Position numbers and translations under genes: made by a program. Below are positions 2,077-55,459 of a stretch of DNA of 64,000 nt, one piece after another. Each line of letters opens with the position of its first letter. Position 1 is the first letter of the stretch. This stretch comes from a virus. Its lineage: Duplodnaviria; Caudoviricetes. The DNA is taken from IMG/VR virus record IMGVR_UViG_3300036766_000439, positions 2,086 to 66,085 of that record, one strand, 5' to 3'. Under the pieces are notes generated by a model. It was not told the DNA's origin. It saw only the letters and a program-made list of their open reading frames with translations, and ran no database searches.

Positions 2077-3585
2077 ATGTCCTGGGAAATCGGCACACCG
2101 AACACCGCAACCGCTCTGGCCGCAATGTCGCCTGAGTCGGTGCGCGTCATCTGGCAGAAAGAAGTCGATATGGGCGAACAGTCCGAAGACTTCTTTGCAC
2201 AATTCGAGGGCGCGTCGAAAGACAGCCCCGTCATGGTCATCAACGACACCTCCGTCGAGAAGGGTCTCCAATTCCGCATCACCTCCCGCGCCGGCTACTA
2301 CAATCGCGGCAAGTCGGGTGAGGGCCTGTTCACGACCTCCGCGGACTTCGCGGTTGATGTCATCAACAACAACACGTTGCAGGCCGACTACCTGCGCAAC
2401 GCCACCTCCGCCACGCAGCGCACCGACGAATACATGGGCATGCAGGGTGAACTGGTGGACGGCCAAGCGGCCGAACTCGGCAAGTGGATGGGTCGCGAAA
2501 AGAGCGCCCGCGCTGGCATGACGTTCGTGCTCAAGGGCGGCGCCCAAAACCTGCTCTACTCCAACGGCAAGACTGAGGATACCCTCAAGACCGCCGATGG
2601 CCTCACCTACGACGACATCCTCTACATGGGCCAGGCGCTCAAGCCGATGGGTGGTCGTCCCTGCGAGATCGGCACGATCAACGGCAACCCCGTTTACAAG
2701 TATTGTGTCATCGGCACCACGCCCGGTCTGTTCTCGCTCAAGCAGGATTCGGACTACAAGCAAGTCCTGCGCGATGCCGCTCCCCGTGAGAAGATGGACG
2801 CAAATCCGCTCTTTACGGGTGGTTACGTCGATCTCGACGGGCACCGGATCACCGAATACAACCCCATCGACGCCGATGGTTACTCGTGGGTCGGCAGCTT
2901 CTTCAATCCCAAGGCTTACTTGGGCGAGGCGATCACGGCGGGCACCGCCGCCTTCGCCATCAAGGGCGGCGGCTCGACCGCTGCGGCTGCGCTCACCAAC
3001 ATCGACTACTTCCGGTTCTTCCCGAACTATGCGTTCGAGTTCCTGCCCAGCGACATTTATGTCCCTGGCACGACCGAGAAGTATCTCCTGATCGTCAACC
3101 CCAAGGGTTCGGTCACGGTGGACAATCCCCAGCCCGGCGGCGTCGGCATGTATGCCTACACCACCGGCAACATCGGCTACCAAATCACAATCACCAAGCG
3201 CCTTGCGTCCGTGCAGAACGGCCCGGTGGCGCTCAATCAGGTGGGTCAGGTGGTCTGGGGCGCCGGTGTCTGGGCAACCAGCAACTTCCCGGCCGGCAAC
3301 TCGATGGTTCACCCCATCGGTTCGACCATCATCGCCTGCAACGCCTACGGCACCCCGATTGGCGACACTGTTATGGTGGGCGCGATGGCGCTGCTCCGCG
3401 GCTATGGTCGTTACCGCAACTCACGCACCCAATGGGACGTGGATGGCGGTTTCGAGACCCGGAAATACATCAAGACGGTCTTCGGGCAAGCCCTGCGGAA
3501 GAACGTCAACGGTGTCTATCCTGGTTACGTCCGCATCCGTCATGCGATCAGCTACCCGGAACTCGGCCTGCCGACGATCACCTAA
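2077..3585 (+). CDS. Major capsid protein (N4-gp56/DUF4043-like)
   Basis: 502 aa, strongly biased codons, follows scaffold, followed by a terminator-like hairpin; overall resemblance to N4-gp56-type capsids. Confidence 0.7.
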   Translation: MSWEIGTPNTATALAAMSPESVRVIWQKEVDMGEQSEDFFAQFEGASKDSPVMVINDTSVEKGLQFRITSRAGYYNRGKSGEGLFTTSADFAVDVINNNTLQADYLRNATSATQRTDEYMGMQGELVDGQAAELGKWMGREKSARAGMTFVLKGGAQNLLYSNGKTEDTLKTADGLTYDDILYMGQALKPMGGRPCEIGTINGNPVYKYCVIGTTPGLFSLKQDSDYKQVLRDAAPREKMDANPLFTGGYVDLDGHRITEYNPIDADGYSWVGSFFNPKAYLGEAITAGTAAFAIKGGGSTAAAALTNIDYFRFFPNYAFEFLPSDIYVPGTTEKYLLIVNPKGSVTVDNPQPGGVGMYAYTTGNIGYQITITKRLASVQNGPVALNQVGQVVWGAGVWATSNFPAGNSMVHPIGSTIIACNAYGTPIGDTVMVGAMALLRGYGRYRNSRTQWDVDGGFETRKYIKTVFGQALRKNVNGVYPGYVRIRHAISYPELGLPTIT

Positions 3586-6557: not shown

Positions 6558-6763
6558 ATCCCCTCCTGCTCGCCCAACTCATCAACACGCTTGGCACGGT
6601 TGGCCTTCCGATCATCACAAAGCTGATGGGTGACATCAGCGCCGGCCGCACCCAGACCACCGTGACCGCGGAGGATCTGGCGGAACTGTCCCGGTTGTCC
6701 TCGCTGACCGGTGAAAAGATATTCGAAAGCATGGGCGCCGTGCCGCCGTCAAAACCCGTCTAA
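6554..6763 (+). CDS. Hypothetical protein
   Basis: 69 aa, ATGA-coupled to the previous gene. Confidence 0.6.
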   Translation: MNPLLLAQLINTLGTVGLPIITKLMGDISAGRTQTTVTAEDLAELSRLSSLTGEKIFESMGAVPPSKPV

Positions 6764-6774
6764 CCCGCCCGCTT

Positions 6775-7386: not shown

Positions 7387-7599
7387 AATCAGTTCCAAGG
7401 CAGTTCGAGGTGACGCTCTTGAAAAATGCGCCGATGGGCCTCGGCCACCATCTTCTTAAACTTAGAATCCGTAATGCAAGCATTGCGGATATGGCGGTTA
7501 TGGCATGGCATATGCGACCGGCCGACCACTTGATTTTGCGCGGCACAACTGCCGGCTTTGGGGGGGATTTTCATGGGCGATAATTGGCGATGATGGCGG

Positions 7600-8109
7600 T
7601 TAGACGCGCCCCGCGCGCGGCTCATGCACGATGTTGGGCAAAGTCGCGCGGATGCGTTTCGCAGCCCGCTCAAGGGTTTTCGCGAGCCTCACCTTTGCGG
7701 CGTCATCGAGTTCTTTTTCGTAGATTTCCCACATTTCATGCCGGAAGAATCTTTCCACGGATACGGTGGCCTCTATCCACGGATCATCGGCACCGACCGG
7801 GGTCACCGCGTGCTCGATTAGCGGGACACCGCGCCGAACCCGGAGAGCCCACGATGGCGATTCCGTGAATGCACCGCGGATAATTTCACGCGCATTTTCT
7901 TCGGCGACTTCCGGGCACTCGCTTTCGACTATGCCGAGAAGTTCTCTTGCTGTTTTTGATGTGTAGCCCAAACAAGTCCCCAGCGCCAACGCGCGGGGTT
8001 TCCGCGGCGATTTCGTAGTAAGTTTTCGAGTGTTTTTCTTGAGCATAAAATCAGTCCTTTCTTTCCGCGCGGGGCACTCTGGCTTTTTGATTTTGGCGTC
8101 AGCGGTCAT
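7600..8109 (-). CDS. Cassette hypothetical protein (duplicate of 53207-53581 core)
   Basis: KTARELLGIVESECPEV...RATLPN core near-identical to the 53207 ORF; start at 8109 or 8046. Confidence 0.7.
   Translation of the reverse strand: MTADAKIKKPECPARKERTDFMLKKNTRKLTTKSPRKPRALALGTCLGYTSKTARELLGIVESECPEVAEENAREIIRGAFTESPSWALRVRRGVPLIEHAVTPVGADDPWIEATVSVERFFRHEMWEIYEKELDDAAKVRLAKTLERAAKRIRATLPNIVHEPRAGRV
7632..7958 (-). repeat. Inverted duplicate of 53214-53540
   Basis: 327 bp with two mismatches seen by eye; identity ends at the GTT/AAC crossover. Confidence 0.9.
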
Positions 8110-8423
8110 GGTGAGTCTGGTTGCTTCGTCCGTCCGGCGTGCCGGACCTTCTCCATCGCCGGCGTTGCGTCGCCGTGCGTGCAGTCGGCCAGCCAGTAGT
8201 CGTGCCACTTGAGGTCACTGAGGTTGCGCCAGCACCACGCCGTCTTGTGCCAGAAGGGGTGATCCCACCGCGCCAGGAATGGGCAGTCCGGCGAGCAGTG
8301 GTAGCCGTCTTCGCCCAGCACCCGCGCCATGCTCCTGCGTTCCTTGGCGGCGCGCATGGCGGCGAATTTCTTCATCCGTTTTAGGTTCGTGCTGCGCCAA
8401 AGCGATTTGCGTCTTATGGTCAT
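8106..8423 (-). CDS. Hypothetical protein (Cys/Trp-rich)
   Basis: 105 aa ORF coupled to its neighbours. Confidence 0.5.
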   Translation of the reverse strand: MTIRRKSLWRSTNLKRMKKFAAMRAAKERRSMARVLGEDGYHCSPDCPFLARWDHPFWHKTAWCWRNLSDLKWHDYWLADCTHGDATPAMEKVRHAGRTKQPDSP

Positions 8424-8441
8424 TTTTCGGTGCGGCCTATT

Positions 8442-8678
8442 CTATTGTTCGGCATACACGATTCCGCGTGCGACGTTCCACTTGCCACAGTGCGGGCAGT
8501 TCGCGGCGATCCCCTCATCCGGTTCTCCGCGATTGAATGGCCGGTGGTCGCGCGTCGCGAACGGGCGTTTGCAGTTTCCGCATACGATGCTCGCCTTCGG
8601 TTGCCCCCAAAGGCAGATGCTCCACGCCTCGAATGAGGCCGCGTCGCAGATTTGGTCTTGTGTGAGTTGGATTGCCAT
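8442..8678 (-). CDS. Cassette Zn-ribbon protein
   Basis: CGNC...CPHC motifs; bounded by GTTCGGC at 8447 and the attC at 8687. Confidence 0.65.
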   Translation of the reverse strand: MAIQLTQDQICDAASFEAWSICLWGQPKASIVCGNCKRPFATRDHRPFNRGEPDEGIAANCPHCGKWNVARGIVYAEQ

Positions 8679-8686
8679 AAAAAGAA

Positions 8687-8748
8687 GCCTACCAATGTGC
8701 TACAGAGAACGGCCCCCGAGCGGGCCGTCTCTGACCACGGCGTTCGGC
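8687..8748 (+). repeat. attC site (short family)
   Basis: GCCTACC-AATGT-GCTACAGAG..CGGCCC-loop-GGGCCG..CTCTGACC-ACGGC-GTTCGGC; about 44-bp core identical to the reverse complement of 53533-53594. Confidence 0.8.
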
Positions 8749-9017
8749 CAGTGAGCGTTTAGGAGTTCCGCGAGGTGATCCCCGATCTGGTCTTGGATCG
8801 CAGCGGCCTTATCGGCTGGCAGGCCATGCGCGCCCGTGCCCGTTAGGTGGCCCCAGCCTCGGATGTCGAGCATACGCTCAGCGCCTTCGCCACTACCCCA
8901 GATTATACCATCCTCATGCCGAAACGGCGGAGTGAAGTATTTCGCAGCAAGGCCGAACCAGGCGCTAGAGCCAACGCTCGCAGCCTGTCCTTTTTCGGGT
9001 GATTGTTCTCCGCTCAT
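8700..9017 (-). CDS. Cassette hypothetical protein
   Basis: Starts MSGEQSPEK within the partial attC at 8952-9035 and ends inside attC 8687-8748; contains LDIRGWGHLTG. Confidence 0.65.
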   Translation of the reverse strand: MSGEQSPEKGQAASVGSSAWFGLAAKYFTPPFRHEDGIIWGSGEGAERMLDIRGWGHLTGTGAHGLPADKAAAIQDQIGDHLAELLNAHWPNAVVRDGPLGGRSL

Positions 9018-9019
9018 AG

Positions 9020-9250
9020 TTATAGGGTTTTCGGCGAGATGCGAAAAGTGACGCGCACCACTTTGCATTTTCCAATGTGCGGCTTGAGTGCCTTGGCCAT
9101 TTCTGCCGCGCGGTATCGGTGGCAGTAGAGCTGCGGAGTTGATTCGGAGCCTAGAGTTATTCGTCCGCTGTGATGCTGCACGGCCCACGCTGAACCACCC
9201 GTAGAGCCAACGCGGGCGCGGCTCCGTCCTTTTGCTTTAGAGGTCTTCAT
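9020..9250 (-). CDS. Cassette hypothetical protein
   Basis: ATG lies in the loop of attC 9189-9294. Confidence 0.55.
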   Translation of the reverse strand: MKTSKAKGRSRARVGSTGGSAWAVQHHSGRITLGSESTPQLYCHRYRAAEMAKALKPHIGKCKVVRVTFRISPKTL

Positions 9251-9294
9251 GTTTTCGATTGGCTAGAGCCGCGTGGCTCACTTTGACGTTCGCT
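9189..9294 (+). repeat. attC site
   Basis: GCTGAAC..GTAGAGCCAACGCGG...CCGCGTGGCTCAC..GTTCGCT imperfect palindrome with an extra base in the left arm. Confidence 0.75.
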
Positions 9295-9330
9295 GTAAAT
9301 TTCAGATCACAATCAAATGCCGATTTTATT

Positions 9331-11043
9331 CTATGCGTCAATACGTTTCTTCGCCTTGATTGTCTTGTCGATCACCGCGGACGCCTCGTTCACGGTCAGC
9401 GTGGCACAGGTCTGCTCATCGAGTCCTAGCTGCGCCATCAGCGATAGCTGCCGCGGCGTTGCCAAGTGGTGTTTCAAGCGCGAGATCACGCGGGCAATGA
9501 CTTTCGACGCGAGCCCCTTGCATTTGATGTTGCTCACGTCGATCCCCTGCTTTTGCAGAAAACTCAACTGCCCGTCCGTCGGCGGCAGGCTGTCCCATGA
9601 AGTCTCCGGTTCATAGCTGGCCAAGGACGCATCCCCCAAAGACACGGAGAGCGCAATGGGGTCAATCGTCCGGGCCTGCTTGCGCGCGTGCTTCTTGGCC
9701 GCGTCCTGCAACGCCTTGAGCATGTCCCGCTCCGCCACAGACTCAGCCGCCACCAAATCCACCTCCCCGGACTCCAGCATGGCTTTCCGTATCGCCGGTT
9801 TCGAGGCGACAAGATCCACCGGCTGAATCAGGTCGATGCGGTCGGTCAGCCATAGGAAATCGAGGATCACGAAATGTGGCTTGGCGGAGGCTGCGATTGC
9901 CGCCAGTCGGGCCTCGCGGTCGTCCAAGTGGTCGATCAATCCCGGCAGCGTGCGGGTTCCGCGGACACTGGCCTGCACGAAAAAACTCCAAATCTTGGTC
10001 GGCCGCAGGATGCAGACTCCTGTAATGTCGGGCACGTCAAAGCCCTCGACCACCAAAAGGGCGTTGCAAAGCACGGTGCCCGGTCCCGCGGCGCGAAAGG
10101 CGACAATCTTCTCGTCCCGGTCATCGCAGGCGCCGGACACGAAACTCCCGTTCATCCCCTCATCGCACAGGGCTAAAGACAGCAACCGGGCGGTTTCTAT
10201 GGACGGCGTAAACACCACTGTCTTTAGAGTCTTGGCGTGAAGGGCGATCTGCTTGGCGACTTCCCGCAGGATCGGTGCGATGCGGGCCGTCACCTCGCCC
10301 AAGTCGAAATCCGCCCCCTGTCCGCCGGCACGGGATAGTTTGACTCCGCGCATGTCAATCTTGAGCGGGATGTTCTTCACCAGCGGGCGCACGAGATACC
10401 CGTCGCGCACCGCTTCGAGCAGTCCGTATTCATAGGCGATCTTTTGATAAAGCTCCCCAAGGTCGCGCTTGTCGCCGCGGCTGGCCGTCGCCGTCACACC
10501 CAAGATGCGGGCCTTGTGCTGGTATTCGGCTCCGATCTCCGGCGCGGACCATCCTTCATTGAGAGAGTCCCGCCCGTAGTGGAAATAAAAGATAATCTTG
10601 AGGTAAGACTTGGCGAGGCTCCGATGGCATTCGTCCACGATGACGAGGCTGAAATGATCGTCCGCAAACCCCGTCAGCCGGTTGTCCCGCGTCAACGTCT
10701 GCACCGACGCAATGACGACGGAGGCAAACGGGCTCGCATGATCGTCCGCCTTCTCCTTGTCGGCCACGAGTCCGGTGGACTTGCGCAGCTTGTCTATCGC
10801 CTGCTCTAGCAACTCATCGGTATGCGCGAGAATCAGCACCTTGCCGCCTTTGGCGACTTCATCGCGGGCGATGTTGGCGAAAACTACGGTCTTGCCACAG
10901 CCGCCACTCATCACCACGAGTTGCCGCGTAGCCTCCGCCCAGCCAGCCTCGACCGACTCGATGCACTCAGTCTGATAAGGGCGCAGGCGAAGCAGCGGCG
11001 CGGGCGCGTCGTCAGCCCAATCAATTTCTAGGATTTGGCTCAC
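9331..11043 (-). CDS. SF2 (DEAD/DEAH, ResIII-like) helicase
   Basis: LRPYQ Q-motif, GCGKT Walker A, DECH, TAT, EGFDVP, QASVRGTR. Confidence 0.9.
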   Translation of the reverse strand: MSQILEIDWADDAPAPLLRLRPYQTECIESVEAGWAEATRQLVVMSGGCGKTVVFANIARDEVAKGGKVLILAHTDELLEQAIDKLRKSTGLVADKEKADDHASPFASVVIASVQTLTRDNRLTGFADDHFSLVIVDECHRSLAKSYLKIIFYFHYGRDSLNEGWSAPEIGAEYQHKARILGVTATASRGDKRDLGELYQKIAYEYGLLEAVRDGYLVRPLVKNIPLKIDMRGVKLSRAGGQGADFDLGEVTARIAPILREVAKQIALHAKTLKTVVFTPSIETARLLSLALCDEGMNGSFVSGACDDRDEKIVAFRAAGPGTVLCNALLVVEGFDVPDITGVCILRPTKIWSFFVQASVRGTRTLPGLIDHLDDREARLAAIAASAKPHFVILDFLWLTDRIDLIQPVDLVASKPAIRKAMLESGEVDLVAAESVAERDMLKALQDAAKKHARKQARTIDPIALSVSLGDASLASYEPETSWDSLPPTDGQLSFLQKQGIDVSNIKCKGLASKVIARVISRLKHHLATPRQLSLMAQLGLDEQTCATLTVNEASAVIDKTIKAKKRIDA

Positions 11044-11665: not shown

Positions 11666-12808
11666 TTACGAAAATTGTAAAATCCGTTTTTCGCCTTGGG
11701 TTACAAACGGCTTGAATCTGCCGTCAACTACACTCTGCGCGGTCACGCTTGCCTTCCCGCCTTTAGGGATGTCCATGACTGTTGCCACCTCATCCACGAG
11801 GCGCGTCATCGACGGTTTATATGCCGCTGCCATGTGCTCATCGGTGACAAGGATTTCTTTTGCGGCCTTGAAGAACTCCACCGGCTTATCAATCGTGTAG
11901 CTCCCTTTCTGAATTTTCCGCGTGATTGTGATGCCGCAACCGGCGGCAATCGAGTCCTGTTTGTCGAGGCGTTCATGGAGCATGGCGGTCGCGTCCTCAG
12001 TGGGGCGGTTGAGCGTGCGGGCAGCGATCACCCAGTCAGCCAACTGGGCGTCATTGGGCTCGCGTTTGACGCGGGCGAGGGATTCAGGAGTCAGGGTTGC
12101 TTTCATGTGTTCGAGTTCAAGTTGCAGGGCGGGGCATTGTATCGACGCTGGGCACCAGCGGCATTGCGCCATGCCGGAGTTCACTTCCATCGCGTTATCG
12201 AGGGCCGCGTTGATCCGGGCCTCCAGACCGGCCGTGGCCTTGTCGATGTCCTCAATCATGGCCTCGCTCACGCGGGGAAAGCCTTCATCCTCGTCGTTGC
12301 GCGGTTGGATGATGCGGACCTTGCCGCGGCGCAGCGTCGGATAGGCGCGTTTCAACAGGCAGGCATAAACGAGCAGTTGCCAGTTCTGCTCGGCAATATC
12401 GACGGGGATGTAGCCCGTTTTGAAGTCATCGACACGGAACTCGGTCACGTCCGGGTTGAGCGCCACCACGTCAGGATGCCCGGAGAGGTTGAACCGATCC
12501 CAAGAATACGCCAGCGCCGCCTCACATTCCAGCGACCAGTCCGCCGGCGTTTCCTCGATCACTGTCCGAAAGAGGAAATTAATCATCCAGTCATTCAGGT
12601 GATTGCCGGGCGCATAGTTGAACCCATTGGGGAAGCCATTGCCGTAGGCTCCGGCCTCCGTGACGAGCCGCCAGGCGGTCTTGAGGTGTATGTCCGTGCC
12701 CTCGTCGCCCTCTGTGCCGGCGCGCGGGGCCACGAGGCGCGTGAGCGTCAGCGACCCGTTGCAGGACAGCACCCGATCAATCTCGCTCGCGCGGAGGGTC
12801 GGTTTCAA
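11666..12808 (-). CDS. PD-(D/E)XK exonuclease (DUF2800/Cas4-like)
   Basis: LRASE..C, GHPD, DFKTG, QLLVYA, CRWCP...CP. Confidence 0.8.
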   Translation of the reverse strand: MKPTLRASEIDRVLSCNGSLTLTRLVAPRAGTEGDEGTDIHLKTAWRLVTEAGAYGNGFPNGFNYAPGNHLNDWMINFLFRTVIEETPADWSLECEAALAYSWDRFNLSGHPDVVALNPDVTEFRVDDFKTGYIPVDIAEQNWQLLVYACLLKRAYPTLRRGKVRIIQPRNDEDEGFPRVSEAMIEDIDKATAGLEARINAALDNAMEVNSGMAQCRWCPASIQCPALQLELEHMKATLTPESLARVKREPNDAQLADWVIAARTLNRPTEDATAMLHERLDKQDSIAAGCGITITRKIQKGSYTIDKPVEFFKAAKEILVTDEHMAAAYKPSMTRLVDEVATVMDIPKGGKASVTAQSVVDGRFKPFVTQGEKRILQFS

Positions 12809-13626
12809 AACACGCTCCTTCCTGTGCTGACTGATTGTTTGTCGATCTCGAAGCGCACCCCGGCGCAGACCGGGAGCGGTTCGCCTTCCTTGTAGCCGTC
12901 ACAAAAGACGGCGCGGATCGCCTTGTCATTGGGCGTGCGGACGACGAATGACTCTGGAAGCAACGCGACATTTTCAACCCGGTGAATCAACCGCACCTTG
13001 AACGCAACGCCAGTCGGCTTTGCCATCACCGGAGCCGGGGCGAACTTGACCGCCTCGATTGCCTTCTCCGTTTCGGTTTTGGGCGGCGGCGGGGTGGGCG
13101 GCAGGTCGTCCAAGTCGAGTTCCATCACCGGCGTCTTGTTCTTGGCCGCGGCTTCAGCGGCAGCTTTCGCCGCTTCCTCCGCAATGCGCTGCACCTCCGC
13201 CTGCCGGCGTTGCTCGGCCTGAATCTCTGCCTGCCGGATCTTCTCCAACCGCTCCAACTCCTTGCGCCGGGCATCCTCCGCCGCCTGGGCCTTGCGCTGC
13301 TGATCGTCGTCATAGGCCGTCAGCGCGAACTTGAGCACGGTCTTGGCCTTTTCGATGCGCGCCATCGGCTCGCGCGCCGTCTCGTCAATCTTGGCATTGA
13401 TGTCGATGAATGGGCGTTTCAGCGCAAGGCGCGTGGCGTCGAGTTTCTTGCCCGCGCCCGTCAGGCGTTGCTGCAAGTCGGCCGCTTGCTGGGCCGATTG
13501 CGCGTCGGTGATCTTGAGCGCCGACACCTGTTCCTCGACCTTCGCCAGCGTGGCGAGGAATGCATTGTCCGCCAGAATCAGCGGGAATGCCGGTGCGGTC
13601 GCGGCAACTTCGATGTGCTCGCTCAA
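12805..13626 (-). CDS. Coiled-coil hypothetical protein in recombination operon
   Basis: TTG start overlapping the previous stop; long Ala/Glu/Lys coiled coil. Confidence 0.6.
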   Translation of the reverse strand: MSEHIEVAATAPAFPLILADNAFLATLAKVEEQVSALKITDAQSAQQAADLQQRLTGAGKKLDATRLALKRPFIDINAKIDETAREPMARIEKAKTVLKFALTAYDDDQQRKAQAAEDARRKELERLEKIRQAEIQAEQRRQAEVQRIAEEAAKAAAEAAAKNKTPVMELDLDDLPPTPPPPKTETEKAIEAVKFAPAPVMAKPTGVAFKVRLIHRVENVALLPESFVVRTPNDKAIRAVFCDGYKEGEPLPVCAGVRFEIDKQSVSTGRSVF

Positions 13627-14681
13627 TCCACCTCCGGCGCCGTATCGGGCGTCGCCTCTTTCACGGCCTGCACGATGATAATCATGCTCTTGGCCTTGGT
13701 GAGTTTGCCGAGCAGTTCCACCTCCAGAAGTTTGCCCTTCGCCCAAATCGGATTCGGGATCAGGTTGTCCTCATCGCGGGTGGCACCGCCGATGTGAATG
13801 ACGGTGCCGGTGAACTCGCCTTCGAGTTCCACGCTGACCGAGGGCGTCAGCACGCCACCGCTTTTGACCTCCATCGTGGTCACAGCGATCATCGTGCAAA
13901 GTGCGGTCAGTTTCTCGCCGTCGTTGAGCGCCGTGCGGGCGGCGGGTTTCGTGTCGGGCTTGGCCGGCGGTTCCGCGGCGGGCGGAAGAATCTCCGCCTC
14001 CAGCACCGTTGTCGTCGCCTTGGTGTTCTCCGTCACTGTGGCGGCACCCTTGGCCTCGCGTTTCGGCGGGGCGGTGCGTTTCGGCGGGTCAATCACCTTC
14101 TCGGCACCCGACGGAGCCGGCGTGACGTTGATTTCCTCCATGATAAACCGGTCATCGGCATCGTAGGGAATGCCGTGGATCACCTGGCGGGCGCAGTGCT
14201 TGAGGGCGCGCAGCGAAAGCATGTGGCGCGGCCGGGATGCCCAGTTGGGATTTTGTCCGACTTTCCACTCAGACAAAAGCGCAGTATATACTAGAGGGCG
14301 CTCCACCCCCTTGCGCCAGATGCGCGCAATCGCATGGGTTGGCGGAACGGAAACGTCTTCGGGATAGCAGACCGATTCCCAGCTATCGACGGCGGGATGC
14401 TCGGAGAGCTTCTTATAAACTCCCGCCGGTCCCATGATGGGGATGATGCTGCCCCCCTGCCCAGGAAACGCATACAGCATGTCCGGCAGGAACGGGTTGA
14501 CCCCCATGTCGGCGGCAATCGAGACGAAGGCCGCAAGCTGGCTGTCGGTGATGTTGGCCGCATTGCCTTTGAAGCATTGGGCCTTGATTGCCTCTATCAT
14601 GGCTCCAGGCTCCATGCCAATCAATGCGGCAAGTTGCTGGGAGGCTTTCGGGCGGACGGCGAGTTGGGTGTTTTCAGACAT
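13623..14681 (-). CDS. RecT/Redβ-family single-strand annealing protein with C-terminal extension
   Basis: QLAAFVSIA..GVNPF...YAFP, W...PRHML...ALKHCAR motifs. Confidence 0.8.
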   Translation of the reverse strand: MSENTQLAVRPKASQQLAALIGMEPGAMIEAIKAQCFKGNAANITDSQLAAFVSIAADMGVNPFLPDMLYAFPGQGGSIIPIMGPAGVYKKLSEHPAVDSWESVCYPEDVSVPPTHAIARIWRKGVERPLVYTALLSEWKVGQNPNWASRPRHMLSLRALKHCARQVIHGIPYDADDRFIMEEINVTPAPSGAEKVIDPPKRTAPPKREAKGAATVTENTKATTTVLEAEILPPAAEPPAKPDTKPAARTALNDGEKLTALCTMIAVTTMEVKSGGVLTPSVSVELEGEFTGTVIHIGGATRDEDNLIPNPIWAKGKLLEVELLGKLTKAKSMIIIVQAVKEATPDTAPEVD

Positions 14682-14884: not shown

Positions 14885-17215
14885 TTAGGCGGATTTTTGC
14901 GTCAACTGCGAGGCGAAGGGTGTGCTGCCACCGGGACCGGCCTTGCCGAGCTTGCTGCCGGCAGTGGCGGGCTTGGGTGCCTTTGCGGCCTGCGCCGGCG
15001 TTTCCTGCACGCCAAGTTTTGAGATAACCTGGGCGCGTTCCTCCGGGGTGAGCAGTTCCAGCTTGGCCGTGACCCCCACGCTTGTCTTCGTCGGTTCCTC
15101 GGCGGGCTGCGGCTGTTCGGGCTGAATGGCGGTGTCCGCATCGCACTTGGGATCTAGCACGCGAAGCTGTTGCCGATAGAACGGCGCCGTCTTTTCCTGC
15201 ACCGTCGGCGGAAGCAGGTAGAATTTTTCCACCAGTGCCGCGGCCTGCGCCGACATTTGCAGGGCGGTGTTGTCCTTAAGCGTGGTCAGTTCGATTACGC
15301 ATTTGAATTTAAGGCCGCGCACGTCATCTGGGGTCAGTTTTGAAATACCCAAATCATCACCTTCCAAATATGAAAAAACCTCCTCCGGGTTGAGGTTCGC
15401 CAAGGTGACATCAATCTCGCGGTTGACGACGCGCTCCAGCGGGCCTTTCAAGTCCTGAATGATGGGGCGGAACAGTTCGTCACCCGACTGCGCCACTTGA
15501 ATGACTCCCGTTGCCAGCTTGGCCGACTGCATGCCGGCGGCTTGGTCGTCGTTGGCATTGCTGACGCCGCTCTCGTTCATCGCCAGTTGCATGAAAAACT
15601 GGATCATCAGATGAATCTGCTCGAACTTCGTGTCGGTCAGATAGACGGTTTCCAGCACGTCCTCGCGCTTCATGCCCGGTTTCTTGGTGTAAGTGCCGCC
15701 CCAGTTCATCTTGAGGTTCGGGTCGCGGTCGCCTTCGAGGGTGTTGGTCGGCGTCCAGAGATCGACGCGGCCGGCGCGGCTCTGGCTGTAATTCCAGCGG
15801 TTGACAAGCAGGTCTGTGATCGTGCCGTAGCTCTCAAACAGTTCCATGATGCCGAGCCCATACCACCGGCCCTCGACCGGATTGATGCGGACCACCTCCA
15901 GCGGGCGCAGGCCGTCCGTGGTGATGTTGGCAACGTGATCGTAGAAAATCGGCATCTGCGACTTCCGATCCGCAATCAGGCAGATATTCTCCGCCACGCC
16001 ATCCCCGTTGGCGTCATACCACATCCAGAACTCCGCGAACTCCGCCACCGGCCCCCCCTCGTTCGGCTCCTGAATCTGGAAATTGTCGTTCGGGCGGTTT
16101 TGCTGGCCCTCCGCAGCCTTCGGTGCCGGGCTGTTGGACGCCATCTGTTTGATGAGGGCGACCATCTTCTGCGCGGCACCAAGGCGTTCATCGGTGTCAT
16201 CCCCGACCAAGCCCCGCTTGACCACGAGATCCACGAACTCCATGACCGGCTTGTCATAGAGGTGAATGCAGCAATCGGCGGACTGGAGATCGGTTGCGCT
16301 GCTCGGGCACAGGAAGTCTTTGAAAAATATCACCTCCGACCGCGCACCCTCGAACAGCACTTGGCGGCGGTTCAGCGGGACGTTCTGATAGATCGGGGCC
16401 AATGGCTCCGGCGTCACCCCATCCCGCGCCAGAACGCGCGTGCCGGCACCATCCTCGGCGTCAACGAACTCGTCGTCCTCCGTGATATGGTTGCCGTCTT
16501 GGGCGCGCACCGGCTCGCCCTGCACGTCGGTCAGCACGCGGGCCTCGACGTTGAAAAGCTGGTCCCGGACGACATAGGAGGTCTTGACCACCGCTTCCCC
16601 CAGGATGAGGGCGCGCGAGATCGCCCGCTCCTTGTCCACTTGGGAATCCGACTCGCGCAGCTTGTATTGGCAGAACCGCTGGATGCGCAAGGCCCGTCCG
16701 GCGTCATCCACGGGGTCAAACTCCGGCACCGGGGCAGGATTGACCGAGAACCACGGCACAGCCCCAAAAAAGGCGTTCTTGGCCCGCGCAATCATCTGCC
16801 GGCAGATACGGCGCACCAGCGGCACGGAAATGTTTGAGGACAGGAAAATGTTGTCCGGTCCCATCGTGTAGGGGCGCCATGTCACGTCGTTCAGGAACGT
16901 CGCATCGTAGCGGGCGCGCTTGCCCATGAACGTGTCACCGGCGGTCAGCAACCCCTGCGCGGCCAAAGCCACGTTCTGCCGGCTGCCGGAGTTCAGCCAC
17001 CATGTCGGCGTCATGGTTTGGTCCCGGCCCGACTCGTTGTTCATGTGCCGGTAGCGCGCAAACGCATGGTCGATCATCTTCTTTTCCTGCTCGGCAGTCA
17101 GCTTGAGCGCGGTCTGGAATGGCACCTTCGGCTGGTTGTAGTCGGGGGCGGGGGCACCGGGCGGATTCACTACCTGCTGGGCTTTGTCGATGAAGGATGA
17201 AACTTGGTCGCTCAT
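14885..17215 (-). CDS. Portal protein (podovirus-like)
   Basis: 776 aa; GEAVVKT, PVEGRWYGLG, SGVSNA..ATG motifs typical of P22-like portals. Confidence 0.75.
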   Translation of the reverse strand: MSDQVSSFIDKAQQVVNPPGAPAPDYNQPKVPFQTALKLTAEQEKKMIDHAFARYRHMNNESGRDQTMTPTWWLNSGSRQNVALAAQGLLTAGDTFMGKRARYDATFLNDVTWRPYTMGPDNIFLSSNISVPLVRRICRQMIARAKNAFFGAVPWFSVNPAPVPEFDPVDDAGRALRIQRFCQYKLRESDSQVDKERAISRALILGEAVVKTSYVVRDQLFNVEARVLTDVQGEPVRAQDGNHITEDDEFVDAEDGAGTRVLARDGVTPEPLAPIYQNVPLNRRQVLFEGARSEVIFFKDFLCPSSATDLQSADCCIHLYDKPVMEFVDLVVKRGLVGDDTDERLGAAQKMVALIKQMASNSPAPKAAEGQQNRPNDNFQIQEPNEGGPVAEFAEFWMWYDANGDGVAENICLIADRKSQMPIFYDHVANITTDGLRPLEVVRINPVEGRWYGLGIMELFESYGTITDLLVNRWNYSQSRAGRVDLWTPTNTLEGDRDPNLKMNWGGTYTKKPGMKREDVLETVYLTDTKFEQIHLMIQFFMQLAMNESGVSNANDDQAAGMQSAKLATGVIQVAQSGDELFRPIIQDLKGPLERVVNREIDVTLANLNPEEVFSYLEGDDLGISKLTPDDVRGLKFKCVIELTTLKDNTALQMSAQAAALVEKFYLLPPTVQEKTAPFYRQQLRVLDPKCDADTAIQPEQPQPAEEPTKTSVGVTAKLELLTPEERAQVISKLGVQETPAQAAKAPKPATAGSKLGKAGPGGSTPFASQLTQKSA

Positions 17216-17231: not shown

Positions 17232-20200
17232 TTACTTTAGAGTTTCCATCAGAGCGTCATGCGCCTTGTGCTCTTTGGGTTTGAGATTAAACAGTTTGGC
17301 GAACTTGTTGGCATCGTCCTCCCGGTCCTGCTCCGCCTTGCGCAGAATCGCCCGGTCCGCCGGTTTGAGGGACTTCGCAAACGCCTGATCCATTTCGGCG
17401 TTCTTCGTCCACGAACGGAACAGGCTGTCGTTGAGCCCGGATTGAAGTTTTTGGAGCGCAACGTCCCGGTCGAACTGCGAGGCATAACCGCTGTGAACCT
17501 GCACCGTCGCAAGCATCTTCTCCGCCTCCGCCTTGGCGCGCTTCATGTCGCCATCCTGCAAGGCATAGTGGAGTTGCTGGTATTTGCCGACGGGATAGGT
17601 GCCGGTGTCATCCTTTTCACCGGCGGACTTCTTGTAGTCGTTCGCGAGTTTGTATGCCTGCGTCGCCGCCGTGTGCCGGGAAACTTGGAACCCTTGCGAA
17701 CTAGCAAACTCCTCGAAGCGGCTGACCGTGCGGGCACCTCCCGTCGTGGTCATGTCGATTAACTCCCTGATACCGGGGAGCCACCGAGCAGAGATTGGGA
17801 TGCCCTTGAGTAGAAAATCCGCAAGGGTGTCCATCGCACCGACATTCTCTCCGCGCCAGTTCTTCCCAGTCCCTAATTGAATCAAACTGCCAAAGGCCGG
17901 GCTCAAGCGTCCCATGAAATACTGCCTCGGGTTGTGAATCATGCGCCAGACGTCCTCTGCCGGGTTGCGCATCGTCCAGAGTCGGTTTTTGTGTTCAAAT
18001 CCAAACGGTTCGTCAAAATGGTATTGGTCATCGAACAGCTTGTTCATTATCTGCGCAATCGCCGCGACGGCGAGCGCCGTGAAGGCCAGAGCATACATGG
18101 GTTGCCTCCCGGTCTTGGAGCCGAGAAATCCTTTTGCCCCAATCGCGTAACTGCGGATATTCGACTCCCAGAAATCCGGGGCCAGTGTGAACCAGCCAAG
18201 GACATGCTGGAAAGTGGGATTGCGGTTGAGGTCCGCCAAATTCTGATGCCCGAAACGCTCGTTAATCTGATACGCGCTCAGGTAGCCGATGTCATCGCGG
18301 GTGACTTTGCCGCTCTTGATGTCGGAATCGAAAATCTTCATGTTGCGCTCAAACACGGCATCCATCGTGTGGAACTTGAGGTTCGGAATCAGCCGATGAA
18401 ACGTATATTCCGAAAATGCCCGGCTTACGATGCCCACCGCCGGAATCTTGTCCACGAGGCTCTTGCTGCCCAAGCCTTCCGAGAAATGATTCTCCGCGTC
18501 ATGGTCCCCGCCCAGCATCAATCCCCAGCGGACAAACTCCTGCGTGCGCGGGTCTTTCCAGTCGATGGGCTGCTTGAGGATAACGGGGTTAATCACCACC
18601 CGGTAGCCGGCCGCCAGTTTGATTTCATGGATGGCGTGGAATGAAGCTATGCCGCCCAGCATCGTGCCTTTCATGGTGCTGAGGGACTGATCGAACGCCT
18701 TGACCCCTACCTTGGCGAGATTGGCCGCAGGCGAGCCGGGCGAGTCAATCCATGCGCGGATTTTTGAGCGTTCGATGGCGTTCATCAGTTGCGCATAGTG
18801 ATCGGGATGGATGCCGATTTCACCCTGCATGATGATTGGCTTTCCGTCTGGACCTGTTCCCGTGTAATCCCAGCCACGAAACGCAGCGTTCGGGATGGGT
18901 TTATAGACGACACCGCCCTCCTGTGCCGCAGGCGGGTCGCTGATGTAGTTCGCCTTGTTTGTCTCGCCCTCCTTAAACTGCCCCAGAATCAGTTTGCCGA
19001 TGGGCAGTCCTTCGGGGGGCTTCTGGGTGAGCAACGCTTTAGCCAGCTTGCGCGTCTCGATGGCCTTCGTCAGTTGCGTGCCGTAGATCGCCATGATCTG
19101 GGCCAAGTCTTTCGTCTTCATCTTGAATCCCGCCTGTTCCAGATCGAAGAAATTCGGGAAAGTGCGCTCCTTTGAGTGCTTGAACTTCGCGATAATCTTG
19201 CCGCCAAAGGCCGCGCCGCCACCGGCCACGAACGGCAGTTTTACCATATGGGGAACGTAGTCCTCCACAAAGCCGCCGGATTTGACGACTCCATCCTCCA
19301 CTACGTTTTCATGCAGCACGCCATACTTCACGCCGAGCGCGTGCATGTCATCGAACCATCTCTGCGCCTTGGCGACTGTGGAAAGTTGTTCGGGAGTAAG
19401 TTTTAGCGCCGCCTCATAAATGGCTTTGTCGCGGCCCTTGGATTTGGAGGCCCAGTCGGTCAGCTTGGTTGCATTGCCACCGGCGTCCATGTAGACGGAT
19501 GCGGCCTCGCGCACGCGCTCACTGGGGATTTCCTTGGCGACCTTGAGTGCCGCCGTTTCGGTGTGGCCGATTCCGATTTGATTGTTCCCCACCCAAGTAT
19601 TGAGCACCTTGTTAAACCCCTCGTATTTCTTGACGGCATATATGTCCTTGCCAAACGCCTTCACAGTTCTGCCCGTCTCTTGCAGATGCTCCTTCATGTC
19701 CGCGAGCGAGGATTTGACCTTATCGAGATAATCCTTGGCGGACTCCGCCGGCGTGCCGAGCGGCGCGTCAGGCTCGCCCTGCGGACCAAGCCGTTCCTCA
19801 ATCTTTTTTAACAGAGCCTCGATGTGCGCCGTCGGCTGGCCCGCCGCCTGGATCTTGGCGAGTTGCGCGCGGGCGGTGTCGGCCAGCTTGGCGAGGCGCT
19901 GTTGCTCGGGGCTCGGCGCCGTTTCCGATGGCGAAGCGTCTTCTTCTGGGGCGGGGTGGTCGCGTGCGCGCTCCGCCAGTTTTGATTCAATAAAATCAAG
20001 CCCCTTCGCTACGGAACTCGGATTCCAGTCTTTGGGAACTTCGTAAGATATATTAGCTCGTCCCATCGGGCCGTTTCCGGCTTCATGGTCACGCACGCTG
20101 AGTTTCCATGTCGCCCCGTCGGCCAAGGTGATGTCATTGTAGTAACTGCCCCATTTCGTGCGAAACCACCCGCTCTGAGTGACACCCTCTGGCACATCGA

Positions 20201-23200
20201 AATGATCAAAGATGTCTTGCACTGCATGCGATGCATCTAGGTCTATGCCAAAACTTCCCTTATTTTCTTTGGTTTCGTCAGCAATCTCCTTTTTGGCGAC
20301 ATCGATGGCTGCTTCCTTTGTGGCATATTGTCCGACTCCGCTCCCATCGGATTCAACCGCCCATTTATTGCCGGATTTCATCACCGACCAAGTGCGCTCT
20401 GCGTTTGGGGACCAAACACGATACAATTCTCCTTCTCCGAATCGGGTTCCATCAAGGTCATCACCGGTGACAGCTTCAACCGTGATCTTGGCGGCGCGTG
20501 ATTCTTTTTCTTCCTGAATGTTGCGTTCGACTAGCTTGACCGCTTCCGCCCTTTTAGTCGAAGCACTTCTAGGGCTCGGCTCGGCGGGCGTGCCGGTGAT
20601 AAGTTTGTCGGACGGCTTCCCGCCAGCCTTCAAGCGCACTAGTTCATCAGCCGCTTCTTTCGTCAAGACCACGCCCCTTCCTGTGCGGACATACTCCTTG
20701 TCGAGTCCGAGTTTTTGCAGCGTCGCGTTGTCCATCATGTCGATGAAACCGCGCTTCATCGCTTCGTCGGTTGCCCTTTTGTATCCCGAAATAGCACTCG
20801 CCTGATTCGGCCTCCTGTCTGATGGCGTTGGGTCCGTCGGCTTGCCAACGCGCGCCTGCGATTCGACGCTCTTGCGCAGGCGTTCAAGCGCCTCGGTATT
20901 GTTGAATACCTGAAACGTGGAGTTTCCGCTTTTGATTGTCACCTTGCCAAACTTTTCGGCGGCGAGTTTGCGCTGAATGTCGGCAATGAACTTCTGTTGT
21001 TCATCTGGTTTCCTCGGGTAGTCCTTGGACTTCACCGCTTCGTTGATGGCCTGCTCTCTAAAGTCTTCGAGTTTCGCCGCCTTTGGCATCGCTTTGTCAA
21101 TGGCTGAAAGCAGTTCGGCTTTCGTGTCCTTGAAGTCTTTGGTAGGAGCAAGCTGTTCACGTGCCGCAGTCTTCGCCGCGCGCTGCGCCTGAATTGCCTT
21201 CAACTTCTCATAAGTGTTTAGCGGTTTTGGCGGAGTGCGCTTCTCGATGCCACGCAAGGCGCGCATATCCGCACGGGTCGCGTCGGTTAAAGTCGTCGCC
21301 TCGCCAGCCGCAGTCGAGGGCTTGGCGGGTTTCGCCTCCGGTGCCGCCACAGCCGCCGCCGGCTTCGCTTCTGGCGGGGTATTCTCCCTTTTGGGTGTCT
21401 CGGTAGCCACCGGCTCCGCAGCCTTGTCCAACCCCTTGTAAATCTCCGCGAAGCTCCCGCCTTCCTCCATGTCCGTGAACCCGCTCAACACCCGGAACAG
21501 CGACTCCGAGTAGGGCTTGGCATTCGGGGCTTTCTCCGTGATGAACTCCGCCAGGGCTTGCCGGTTGCGGATATGCGGGAGGTCTTGCACCAGCAACCCG
21601 ACGAAGCGGTTCAGTTTCTCCCGCATCGCCACGTCGATCTTCTTGTCGAACTTCTCAACCTTCTCGCCCTCGGAAGGTGCCCCAAACAGGTCTTTCGCCA
21701 AGTCCTCCATTTCCTTCGACATTTTGTTCTTTTCGAGGTCCGGGTAGGTCTTGAAATGCCCCATCTGCCGGGCCTGCGCCTGCGTCATGGTCCCGGTTTT
21801 CAGCGCGTTCTCGACTAGCGCCTGATGCTTGTCCTGATCGAGCGCATCGAGCACCCGGTTGCTGCCGGTCTTTTTGATCGCCTCGCGCGACATATAATCA
21901 TGCTGCGACATTTGATGGCCCGGCACCTCGTCCGCCGGCAGGTAGGCGGCGAGCTTGGTTTTCACTGCATCGAAGTCATAGGGGAACGTGCCGCGGTCCT
22001 CTTTGGCTTTGGTGAACACCTGTCCGTTCGTGGTGCGCTCCATCGCGTTCCCGCCCGCGTGGCTGATGGCATACTCCGGCGTCTCCGCCGTGAACTGCCC
22101 TTCGCCCTGATGCTTCCCCGCCACGTCATGGATCGTCGGAATCCCCAGCCGCGTGTCACCCACGAGGATTTTCTCGCCCTTGTTCACCCGGTCTAGGAGT
22201 TCCTGCACGTCCTTCGGCTTCCAGCCCTCAGGCAGCGTGCCAGGGCTCGGATTCGGCTCGGGCGGCGGTGCGTCGGCTTTGTTGCCGGGCCATTCCTTGT
22301 CGTAGCCGAGCATTTCAATGATCTTCTTGTCGAGGGCTTCGGTGGTGTGCGCGATGTCGCCCCGCCACTTCTTGACCACCGACCGGATCATTTCATGCAG
22401 CTTCCTGAATGCGTCGATTAGGCGCTGGCTCATGCCCTTGGTGTCGCCGCGATAGACGCGCGCACCCTGCATCGCAAACCACTCCGAACGGGCGCGCTTG
22501 TCGTTCTTCAACTTCGCCCCGGTCTTCGTGCTCTTGGCATCGTATGCCTTGGCCGCACCCTCGCGCTGTCCGTCCTGCAACTTCTCCCATTCGCCCTGCA
22601 CGAAGTTTTCCCCCACGATTATCTCCGCGAAGTGGAACCCCTCATGCACGATGGCACTGGCAAGGTTTTCCGGGTTCAGCTTGTCCCGGTTGAGATAGAG
22701 GGTGTTGCTGTGCTGATCGTAAGCCGCCGCGCTGTCCGGCGTGTTGGCCGCAAGGGCTTTGTCCGCCTTCCACTCGGCGTCGCCCATCGCATGAACCTCC
22801 ATGTTCTCGAACGCCTCCGGGGCCGCGGCGTGCAGGCGTTGCGCGAAGTCGTTGATAATCTCCCCTGTCTTCGCTTTCTCGGTTGGGGTGCCTTTGGCGT
22901 TATCGTGCGCCACGCGCGTCAACCGCTCCGGCGTGTTGCCGCCCCGGTGGATGGCCGGCAGCCGCGGCAGCGTCAGCGAGTCGGGCCGCTTCACGCCGGC
23001 CTGATCGTAAACACTCCCCAAATGCTCATAATGCTCGCGAATGAAATGATCCAGCGCCATGCGCTCCGCCACCTTGCGGTCTTTATAGCCCTCATCACCG
23101 TATTGAGCCGCCTTTTTAAGTATGGCCTTGCCGTCGTCCACGGTCAGCATGGGCTGCCCGGTGTCCTTCCCGTTTTCATCAACGTGCCGGAGGGATTTAT

Positions 23201-23231
23201 ATCGCTCAATGCAATCGCTAAGGGTGGGCAT
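17232..23231 (-). CDS. Giant modular internal virion/DNA-ejection protein
   Basis: 1999 aa; N-terminal HEGFH zincin-like motif, repeated G(T/A)P(A/S)E linkers, hydrophobic C-terminal region. Confidence 0.6.
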   Translation of the reverse strand: MPTLSDCIERYKSLRHVDENGKDTGQPMLTVDDGKAILKKAAQYGDEGYKDRKVAERMALDHFIREHYEHLGSVYDQAGVKRPDSLTLPRLPAIHRGGNTPERLTRVAHDNAKGTPTEKAKTGEIINDFAQRLHAAAPEAFENMEVHAMGDAEWKADKALAANTPDSAAAYDQHSNTLYLNRDKLNPENLASAIVHEGFHFAEIIVGENFVQGEWEKLQDGQREGAAKAYDAKSTKTGAKLKNDKRARSEWFAMQGARVYRGDTKGMSQRLIDAFRKLHEMIRSVVKKWRGDIAHTTEALDKKIIEMLGYDKEWPGNKADAPPPEPNPSPGTLPEGWKPKDVQELLDRVNKGEKILVGDTRLGIPTIHDVAGKHQGEGQFTAETPEYAISHAGGNAMERTTNGQVFTKAKEDRGTFPYDFDAVKTKLAAYLPADEVPGHQMSQHDYMSREAIKKTGSNRVLDALDQDKHQALVENALKTGTMTQAQARQMGHFKTYPDLEKNKMSKEMEDLAKDLFGAPSEGEKVEKFDKKIDVAMREKLNRFVGLLVQDLPHIRNRQALAEFITEKAPNAKPYSESLFRVLSGFTDMEEGGSFAEIYKGLDKAAEPVATETPKRENTPPEAKPAAAVAAPEAKPAKPSTAAGEATTLTDATRADMRALRGIEKRTPPKPLNTYEKLKAIQAQRAAKTAAREQLAPTKDFKDTKAELLSAIDKAMPKAAKLEDFREQAINEAVKSKDYPRKPDEQQKFIADIQRKLAAEKFGKVTIKSGNSTFQVFNNTEALERLRKSVESQARVGKPTDPTPSDRRPNQASAISGYKRATDEAMKRGFIDMMDNATLQKLGLDKEYVRTGRGVVLTKEAADELVRLKAGGKPSDKLITGTPAEPSPRSASTKRAEAVKLVERNIQEEKESRAAKITVEAVTGDDLDGTRFGEGELYRVWSPNAERTWSVMKSGNKWAVESDGSGVGQYATKEAAIDVAKKEIADETKENKGSFGIDLDASHAVQDIFDHFDVPEGVTQSGWFRTKWGSYYNDITLADGATWKLSVRDHEAGNGPMGRANISYEVPKDWNPSSVAKGLDFIESKLAERARDHPAPEEDASPSETAPSPEQQRLAKLADTARAQLAKIQAAGQPTAHIEALLKKIEERLGPQGEPDAPLGTPAESAKDYLDKVKSSLADMKEHLQETGRTVKAFGKDIYAVKKYEGFNKVLNTWVGNNQIGIGHTETAALKVAKEIPSERVREAASVYMDAGGNATKLTDWASKSKGRDKAIYEAALKLTPEQLSTVAKAQRWFDDMHALGVKYGVLHENVVEDGVVKSGGFVEDYVPHMVKLPFVAGGGAAFGGKIIAKFKHSKERTFPNFFDLEQAGFKMKTKDLAQIMAIYGTQLTKAIETRKLAKALLTQKPPEGLPIGKLILGQFKEGETNKANYISDPPAAQEGGVVYKPIPNAAFRGWDYTGTGPDGKPIIMQGEIGIHPDHYAQLMNAIERSKIRAWIDSPGSPAANLAKVGVKAFDQSLSTMKGTMLGGIASFHAIHEIKLAAGYRVVINPVILKQPIDWKDPRTQEFVRWGLMLGGDHDAENHFSEGLGSKSLVDKIPAVGIVSRAFSEYTFHRLIPNLKFHTMDAVFERNMKIFDSDIKSGKVTRDDIGYLSAYQINERFGHQNLADLNRNPTFQHVLGWFTLAPDFWESNIRSYAIGAKGFLGSKTGRQPMYALAFTALAVAAIAQIMNKLFDDQYHFDEPFGFEHKNRLWTMRNPAEDVWRMIHNPRQYFMGRLSPAFGSLIQLGTGKNWRGENVGAMDTLADFLLKGIPISARWLPGIRELIDMTTTGGARTVSRFEEFASSQGFQVSRHTAATQAYKLANDYKKSAGEKDDTGTYPVGKYQQLHYALQDGDMKRAKAEAEKMLATVQVHSGYASQFDRDVALQKLQSGLNDSLFRSWTKNAEMDQAFAKSLKPADRAILRKAEQDREDDANKFAKLFNLKPKEHKAHDALMETLK

Positions 23232-40431: not shown

Positions 40432-40562
40432 ACCTCGCCCGCTCCGCTTCCGCCACGCTCACGCTGTCCTTTGAGCAGGCTTTGGCCTTTCTGCTTTTGG
40501 CGATGATCGCCGGCTTTGTGCTGGGCTTTCTGCTGGGCCACGACTTCCGCTCCGACCGATGA
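40428..40562 (+). CDS. Small membrane peptide
   Basis: ATGA-coupled on both sides; single TM segment. Confidence 0.4.
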   Translation: MNLARSASATLTLSFEQALAFLLLAMIAGFVLGFLLGHDFRSDR

Positions 40563-55457: not shown

Positions 55458-55459
55458 AA

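Follow-up and report, generated by a model that had tools for sequence, protein, structure and literature searches.

The tailed-phage genome represented by the 64,000-nt window analyzed here (bases 2086-66085 of the 66,085-bp virus record IMGVR_UViG_3300036766_000439, derived from a metagenome) carries its own integron, and a block of 327 bp is found in it twice, in inverted orientation, within two arrays of attC-type sites. Integrons are understood as bacterial devices in which a promoterless open reading frame (ORF), followed by its own attC site, is read away from the integrase. The block, which bears an ORF referred to here as X, is probably a genuine two-copy cassette body of a phage-borne integron whose ORFs lie on the bottom strand of the attC sites, and its present arrangement would be the product of the integron integrase (IntI) and of a further event in which this enzyme took no part.

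Copy A (7632-7958, - strand) lies in array A, which comprises about five attC-type sites, several of them decayed, between 7543 and 9296 on the - strand, and copy B (53214-53540, + strand) lies in array B, made up of 18 attC-type sites of the form RYYYAAC...GTTRRRY, all in one orientation, between 47393 and 57099 on the + strand. The two copies were delimited through a repeat search, base-by-base comparison and BLASTN. The repeat search returned arms of 332 nt (7627-7958 and 53214-53545), 99% complementary and 45,255 nt apart, which differ at three positions when compared base by base. Two of these differences are inside the block, namely a non-synonymous A/G at 7898, which exchanges E for G, and a synonymous T/C at 7828. 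As the third sits at 7631/53541, the true identity covers 7632-7958 and 53214-53540 with two mismatches, exactly as a first-pass annotation of this DNA had described it, and the five extra bases of the arms, four of which match, are probably due to chance. The flanking sequences of the two copies are unrelated on both sides, and BLASTN places the block at exactly two positions in the whole 66,085-bp record, with no third copy. A near-identity of 327 bp within 64 kb cannot have arisen by chance, and two differences in 327 bp are compatible with a recent event, in line with the recent movement that the annotation had proposed.

In both copies, the shared block ends one base past a GCCCAAC box, at most 2 nt from the AA/C crossover of the downstream attC. 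The ORF of copy A (- strand) ends in ...RATLPNIVHEPRAGRV and a stop codon, i.e., ...RATLPN followed by IVHEPRAGRV, and that of copy B (+ strand) ends in ...RATLPNTVVRDGPLGGRSL and a stop codon, i.e., ...RATLPN followed by TVVRDGPLGGRSL. Given that the identity ceases at most 2 nt from the crossover, the residues past ...LPN and the stop codon belong to the neighboring unit, and the part of the X ORF encoded by attC amounts to the last 10-13 codons plus the stop. The annotation had already noticed that the protein ends diverge after ...RATLPN and had assigned the C-terminus to the neighboring attC, and both statements agree with the translations and with the fact that each tail is found again at the end of another, unrelated ORF, next to a related attC.

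Two internal controls of this kind show that a tail goes with its attC rather than with the ORF. For example, the core of attC12 (53541-53584), the site downstream of copy B, is 100% identical over 44 nt to positions 8697-8740 of array A, and the unrelated ORF 8700-9188 (- strand), which runs into this array A site (a3, 8690-8750, - strand), ends in ...HWPNAVVRDGPLGGRSL and a stop codon, with the recurring tail NAVVRDGPLGGRSL. The site that follows copy A is, in turn, related to attC18, and the ORF running into attC18 ends in ...SSNIGHEPRAGESPSMPSAE and a stop codon (NIGHEPRAG...). The shared 44-nt core is bounded by non-identical boxes, with unrelated ORFs flanking it on both sides.

Similar endings are found elsewhere in array B when the best ORF is selected heuristically at each junction. 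At 7 of the 18 junctions the ORF crosses in frame where AAC is read as Asn, at a further three it stops at the crossover or within 1 nt of it, with TAA in the box, and four other ORFs stop 8-33 nt short of it. The ORF before a lone box near the integrase gene, intI, also has its stop, a TAA in the box, no more than 1 nt from the crossover. Boundaries of the crossover type delimit the 44-nt core shared by attC12 and a3, as well as the pair formed by attC7 and attC11.

The strand on which these ORFs lie was evaluated against a class 1 integron (AB571791.1, with intI1, dfrA12, orfF and aadA2), whose three sites were processed with the same scripts. An attC's bottom strand is described, in the text available from PMC2727003, as having extrahelical bases near R'', usually a G after the AAC of R', and cleavage in R'. 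On the ORF-sense (top) strand of the class 1 control, bulges are confined to the 5' arm at all three sites, and the base after AAC is G in none of the three top strands and in all three bottom strands. In the phage, 11 of the 18 array B sites have a single bulged T on the 3' arm of the ORF-sense strand, and these sites share the stem-T-6 bp-9 nt-GTT spacing of the aadA2 bottom strand. When all pure bulges are counted, the 3' arm exceeds the 5' arm in 11/18 sites, the reverse is true of 2/18, and 5/18 are tied, while G follows AAC on this strand in 10/18.

The position of intI points in the same direction. Array B ends beside this gene in a lone GCCTAAC box (57316-57322, + strand), which has no hairpin partner, lies 34 nt before the intI ATG and overlaps the TAA of the ORF at 57109-57321, in parallel with the GCTAAC junction at attI1 of the class 1 control. 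We infer that this box is the attI/cassette junction. The strand of bottom-type attC is the intI-coding strand in the phage, as it is in class 1, and the usual succession of an ORF on the attC top strand and its own attC is absent from most of the array B sites when these are compared with class 1. These features argue, with good but incomplete confidence, that the sites keep their usual polarity relative to intI, with the ORFs placed on the bottom-type (recombinogenic) strand. The ORFs of array B are read toward intI, and this polarity would explain why the tails span the junction.

The start-side edge of the block has a different structure. The annotation had placed the end of identity at the AAC/GTT crossover, which holds on the stop side, at the AAC box of the downstream attC, and fails on the start side, where identity begins inside codon 3, at its third base, in both copies. 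The crossover thus delimits only the stop-side edge of the shared unit, whereas in an integron gene cassette it would delimit both ends. The non-identical stretch from the G/TT of the upstream 3' box to the block measures 15 nt in copy A and 29 nt in copy B, and the upstream attC sites differ between the copies, as had been proposed. The ORF of copy B (53207-53581, + strand, 124 aa) has its own ATG 15 nt past attC11, and its stop is inside attC12. Copy A has no ATG of its own, and its frame is open back through the upstream attC-like site. According to the source gene call, this ORF spans 7600-8109 (- strand, 169 aa) and starts at an ATG (8109) overlapping the stop codon (TGA) of the ORF before it; a second possible start, the ATG at 8046, has AAGGA 9 nt upstream, and 30-51 N-terminal residues are thus encoded by the attC-like site.

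Because this edge lies away from any crossover, the pair also requires a second event in which IntI had no part. Inspection by eye of this edge for a secondary IntI site or microhomology gave nothing convincing. Occasional use of the other strand is a plausible candidate at attC11, which is bulge-free, given the depolarization reported for such sites in the available text of PMC2727003, and deletion or short-homology recombination may also be considered. From the 5' box through the end of the 3' box, attC7 and attC11 share 94% identity, after which the leaders are unrelated. In this genome, where the attC7/attC11 and attC12/a3 cores show no linkage to the ORF behind them, exchange at the 3' box or close to it appears to have happened repeatedly. 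Several ORFs also seem to have their start codon within an attC loop. Putative starts of this type include GGAGGA-N7-ATG at 55209, in attC15, and the ATGs at 9250, 8046 and 8109; in the sites that contain them (55170-55261, 9183-9296 and 7967-8126), the 3' arm of the attC encodes a basic N-terminal leader.

In array B, the sites were recovered by a scan for the 3'-arm consensus, which gave 20 hits, namely 17 on the + strand at 47.4-57.1 kb, two on the - strand in array A (8973-8952 and 7988-7967) and one at 26948, with no opposite-orientation hit inside either array; a separate search contributed the remaining site of the 18. The ORFs are co-oriented with the attC-type sites in both arrays, and both copies of the block are flanked by the inverted core boxes RYYYAAC/GTTRRRY that are expected of an integron cassette. 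When 17 sites were folded as DNA and compared with shuffled sequences, six reached z-scores of -2.8 or lower and six others had values from -1.2 to -1.7. Upstream of copy B, attC11 (53085-53191, + strand, GCCTAAC...GTTCGGC) forms a perfect 12-bp stem without a bulge (z -0.78) and is 94% identical to attC7 (51068-51174). Downstream of it, attC12 (53533-53594, + strand, GCCCAAC...GTTGGGC), which encodes the tail TVVRDGPLGGRSL and its stop, is bulged and folds well (z -4.93). The site nearest to intI is attC18 (56988-57099, + strand), a relative of both sites flanking copy A. Two attC duplications were observed within this array, at 51069-51174/53086-53191 (94%, 106 nt) and 50454-50533/51600-51679 (98%, 80 nt), and what comes after the duplicated sites, leader and body alike, is unrelated. 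The array also holds a C5 cytosine methyltransferase cassette (47377-48303; PF00145, 3.9e-27) and an ORF at 55454-56056 that is weakly methyltransferase-like.

The integrase gene (57356-58312, + strand, 318 aa) matches TIGR02249, PF00589 and PF13495. Its product scores 312.4 bits against TIGR02249 (cut-off 265), with residues 7-318 aligned to positions 2-313 of the 315 of the model, shows 41-43% identity in tblastn to the IntI of classes 3 and 1, and is the sole tyrosine recombinase match in the record. By eye, the segment LDRKFPNGGKQWPWFWVFPG...RDPRSGIYRRHH and the HTLRH/Y motifs correspond to what we take to be the IntI-specific segment and the catalytic R-K-H-R-H-Y residues. The gene is about 3.8 kb from copy B, and the 18 sites of array B end 257 nt from its ATG. 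Transcripts of the array could run straight into intI, the lone box being only 34 nt from the start codon. In the viral contig collection, this protein has only distant matches, with 27-40% identity over parts of its length. The nearest genomic IntI genes are 42-48% identical and come mostly from Verrucomicrobiota metagenome-assembled genomes (MAGs), with one in a MAG binned as Thermoplasmatota, and no clear attC array was found in their available flanks. The Verrucomicrobiota relatives are a hint of the host lineage.

In array A, the sites are located at 9296-9183, 8973-8952 (3' arm only), 8750-8690, 8126-7967 and 7639-7543, and the ORFs lie on the - strand. There is no adjacent integrase, and the array has the make-up of a cluster of attC sites lacking integron integrases (CALIN), with at least two attC sites and the only tyrosine recombinase match about 48 kb away. 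The site a3 folds better than its shuffles (z -3.42). The site upstream of copy A (a5, 7967-8126, - strand) has a 3' arm similar to that of attC18, ending in GTTTGGG (7967), and a poor 5' part. The downstream site (a6, 7543-7639, - strand), which encodes the tail IVHEPRAGRV and its stop, combines the GCCCAAC box (7639) and an attC18-like 5' arm with a decayed 3' half. The half-sites on either side of copy A, the upstream 3' half and the downstream 5' half, pair with each other at -41.4 kcal/mol, as against -24.2 and -22.0 with their own partners, and this value was reached by none of 300 shuffles. When the downstream 5' half was paired with the 3' halves of all 18 array B sites, the best value (-39.6 kcal/mol) was weaker than -41.4. 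This cross-pairing fits the insertion of a unit with an attC18-type site beside a like site, followed by decay.

Given this structure, the mobile unit, in the direction of the ORF, would consist of the attC without its first six bases, then the ORF, then RYYYAA, with the IntI crossover (AA/C) at the 3' end of the ORF. As the X ORF has no stop before the crossover, translation enters the next attC, and the last 10-13 residues depend on position, as the two sequences show. One of the copies would have reached its present place through an attC x attC event of the IntI type, which would leave the sharp AA/C boundary. The start-side edge would have been made by the second event, through deletion or through illegitimate or short-homology recombination, and this event would have left copy A without its own ATG, fused in frame to the attC-encoded leader. 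The inverted pair might also serve as a substrate for homologous inversion by the RecT-family annealing protein of the phage (gene at 13623-14681, - strand) and the exonuclease-family ORF adjacent to it (12805-13746), both assigned through family matches.

The assembly was examined in the single public run found to contain this DNA, a sediment metagenome used in the form of Logan contigs (k=31 graph), which cover 94% of the sampled words. These contigs run 29 nt into the repeat from either side before ending (7632+29 and 7958-29), and the repeat itself forms a separate 327-nt piece with a depth of 44.1, the flanking pieces having depths of 18.7 and 22.1. Contig breaks and repeat depth of this kind are the pattern of a true two-copy repeat in a k=31 graph.

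In both copies, X has a sense frame that stays open through the whole 327-bp block, unlike any antisense frame. Pfam, PHROGs and NCBIfam contain no family that matches X, which also has no usable match in the ESM Atlas and no relative in the viral contig collection. A word-index search returned only the two proteins of the record itself, and a full HMMER search added one match of 18 residues to the repeat motif of an 856-aa repeat protein, which was judged spurious. The AlphaFold2 model suggests, with low confidence, a helical protein whose attC-encoded tail is unstructured.

A number of points weigh against the reading of the block as a cassette body moved by IntI. The polarity of the sites is derived from minimum-energy folds and from a control of three class 1 sites only, pure 5'-arm bulges are present in 7/18 phage sites, and 5 of the 17 folded sites are no better than their shuffles (z of -0.8 or higher), for which long loops are a likely explanation. 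The start-side edge matches no IntI crossover, and the model requires a second event that was not observed. Both sites that surround copy A fold no better than shuffled sequences (a5, z 0.11 over 7960-8100; a6, z 0.81), which sits badly with a recent IntI insertion at that locus. With regard to the assembly, the Logan run may be the source sample of the record, contig depth is not a copy number, and no contig of this run joins the flanks across the repeat. Finally, X may not be a real gene. In searches of 5.8 billion clustered proteins and of 1.8 billion representatives, nothing was related to it except its own second copy and the 18-residue match, and its single-sequence AlphaFold2 model has a mean pLDDT (predicted local distance difference test) of 50, too poor for a fold search. 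Its GC content at third codon positions (0.62, compared with 0.71-0.81 in five core genes) suits a foreign cassette, without proving that it is coding.

Copying of the patch might also be attributed to homologous or short-homology recombination alone, through the RecT and exonuclease of the phage or the RecA of the host, without IntI, in which case the AAC edge would simply be the place where the similarity between attC sites happens to end. RecT and an exonuclease are encoded by the phage, the start-side edge lies away from the crossover, decayed sites flank copy A, and gene conversion would maintain just such a near-identity (2 differences in 327 bp) between copies with unrelated flanks. The downstream attC sites are, however, of different types and have only a 7-nt box in common, which is too short for homologous exchange, edges delimited by boxes recur in two other duplicated modules, and an intact IntI is encoded only some 3.8 kb from copy B. 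On this balance, recombination alone is an unlikely explanation. The textbook arrangement, with the ORF-sense strand as the attC top strand, an attC of its own after each ORF, the attI at the 47-kb end of the array and a later replacement of one downstream attC, is quite improbable. Canonical cassettes also typically have ORFs that end in or just past the RYYYAAC box, and 5'-arm bulges do occur in 7/18 sites. Integrases co-oriented with the cassette ORFs are reported for the inverted-integrase group in the consulted parts of PMC3607928 and PMC4889954. However, the side of the bulges, the spacing and the rule of G after AAC are all opposite to what this arrangement would give relative to the class 1 control. 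It also predicts that the identity should continue through the attC of the cassette, whereas the observed identity stops at the box, and the last element of the array on the intI side is a lone box without a hairpin. As far as the available text of PMC3607928 describes, the intI of the inverted-integrase group is transcribed toward attI, whereas that of the phage is transcribed away from its array.

One of the copies could, on the other hand, be an artefact of assembly, or the record could merge two co-occurring phage variants, each with X at a single locus. The record does come from a metagenome, the Logan unitig kept the copy B alleles only, and the repeat (327 bp, with 196 bp from the outer single-nucleotide difference to the edge) would exceed the span of short reads. 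The two copies nevertheless differ by two alleles in the assembled record, the Logan graph branches at both ends of the repeat, whose depth is close to the sum of the flank depths, and no contig joins 7631 to 7959, as an empty site would, although contigs can drop rare variants; such an origin is thus hardly credible. It is similarly very unlikely that the inverted pair is a programmed switch which flips the 45 kb in between, whereby X would trade its N-terminal and C-terminal contexts and the array beside intI would change in composition. The repeats are inverted, share 99.4% identity and have sufficient length to recombine, and, judging from the ORF map, the local co-directionality of the genes through the repeat would be kept in either isomer. 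Against this, no second isomer was seen in the Logan contigs, which terminate at the ends of the repeat, the pair has no invertase-type site or enzyme associated with it, and the repeat is a coding body rather than a short crossover site. The cassette body moved by IntI and altered by a further event is the reading retained here, and the interpretation of the first-pass annotation as a whole is partly supported.

Other features of the record are those of a tailed phage. It is 100% complete according to CheckV, and profile matches identify a major head protein (2077-3585) and an SU10-type portal (14885-17215), in addition to which there are a helicase (9331-11043) and a DnaB-like helicase (40559-42316). 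Two very long ORFs lie on the - strand, at 17232-23231 (1999 aa) and 26727-31040 (1437 aa), the latter without a Pfam match. At 30-121, ARAGORN calls a tRNA-like gene of 92 nt, whose anticodon it leaves undetermined, and Rfam gave no match at gathering thresholds anywhere in the window, this gene included. Bases 1-67 of the record (about 60-67 nt) reappear, with one mismatch, at 66019-66085 (window 63934-64000), and the last ORF contains a 399-nt tandem repeat (63334-63601 compared with 63733-64000, 81%). The recurrence of the record end could reflect circular closure or a terminal redundancy overlooked by the label "linear", or it could be a further unit of the tandem repeat.

Duplicated cassettes and context-dependent termini are known from bacterial integrons. 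In duplicated cassettes of large sedentary chromosomal integrons, e.g., the Vibrio cholerae superintegron, the same ORF is repeated among many small ORFs of no known function that are separated by attC sites, whereas the phage copies are in two opposite arrays, do not share their attC, and have a crossover at only one edge. In the class 1 cassette aacA4/aac(6')-Ib, the neighboring integron sequence likewise supplies part of the protein. There, it is the N-terminus that is set by the upstream sequence, whereas in the phage it is mainly the C-terminus that comes from the neighbor, because the ORF is on the bottom-type strand and abuts the crossover.

Parts of integrons carried by phages have already been published. 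According to the available portion of Qi et al. (2023, PMC9892861), 10,705 phage genomes yielded three complete integrons and 17 CALINs; the former were in temperate phages or prophages and tied to host integrons or class 1 elements, and virulent phages had CALINs only. The present record resembles these in its integron integrase, attC sites and cassette arrays, and methyltransferase cassettes are also reported there in phage CALINs; it differs from what that portion describes in combining an intact IntI, about 18 attC sites and a second array within the phage gene order. In the engineered attC mutants of Bouvier et al. (2009, PMC2727003), with extrahelical bases inverted or deleted, as the consulted text presents them, the side of these bases sets both the strand that recombines and the choice of R' or R'' for the crossover, whereas the phage sites are natural, have a canonical polarity relative to intI and carry the ORFs on the other strand. 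In the inverted integron-integrase group, e.g., that of Treponema, the sections available from PMC3607928 and PMC4889954 describe intI and cassette ORFs as co-directional, as they are in the phage, but there intI is directed toward attI with the array downstream, whereas the phage array is upstream of intI and is read toward it. Virus Rctr41k, an environmental Caudoviricetes (KX853513.1, 4680-8545), has an IntI-like gene with 39.7% identity and attC-like hairpins at 6641-6767 and 8415-8545. These sites are downstream of the IntI-like gene and have G after AAC on the ORF-antisense strand, unlike those of the phage. A non-exhaustive search of the literature, based on the accessible parts of the sources, found neither an array with ORFs on the bottom-type strand read toward intI nor a duplicated body that demonstrates swapped attC-encoded tails.

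A broader proposal, which is speculative and rather doubtful as a whole, is that the phage integron has its ORFs on the recombinogenic attC strand, read toward intI, often starting in attC loops and stopping in the next attC. Exchange at both boxes would reassort ORF bodies and attC cores independently of each other, each shuffle by IntI would rewrite the termini, and X would be an example caught in the act, as well as a homology arm that could flip two thirds of the genome. The presence of the same ORF body in two attC contexts, in one phage with an intact IntI, is a natural experiment within a single genome, and the comparison of the two contexts reveals the positions of exchange and their effect on the protein. 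The sites are defined ones at which the attC strand and the box used by a phage IntI may be investigated. If the strand assignment is true, the movement of cassettes would alter protein termini in addition to gene order, and it would provide a site-specific route to the mosaicism of small accessory phage genes.

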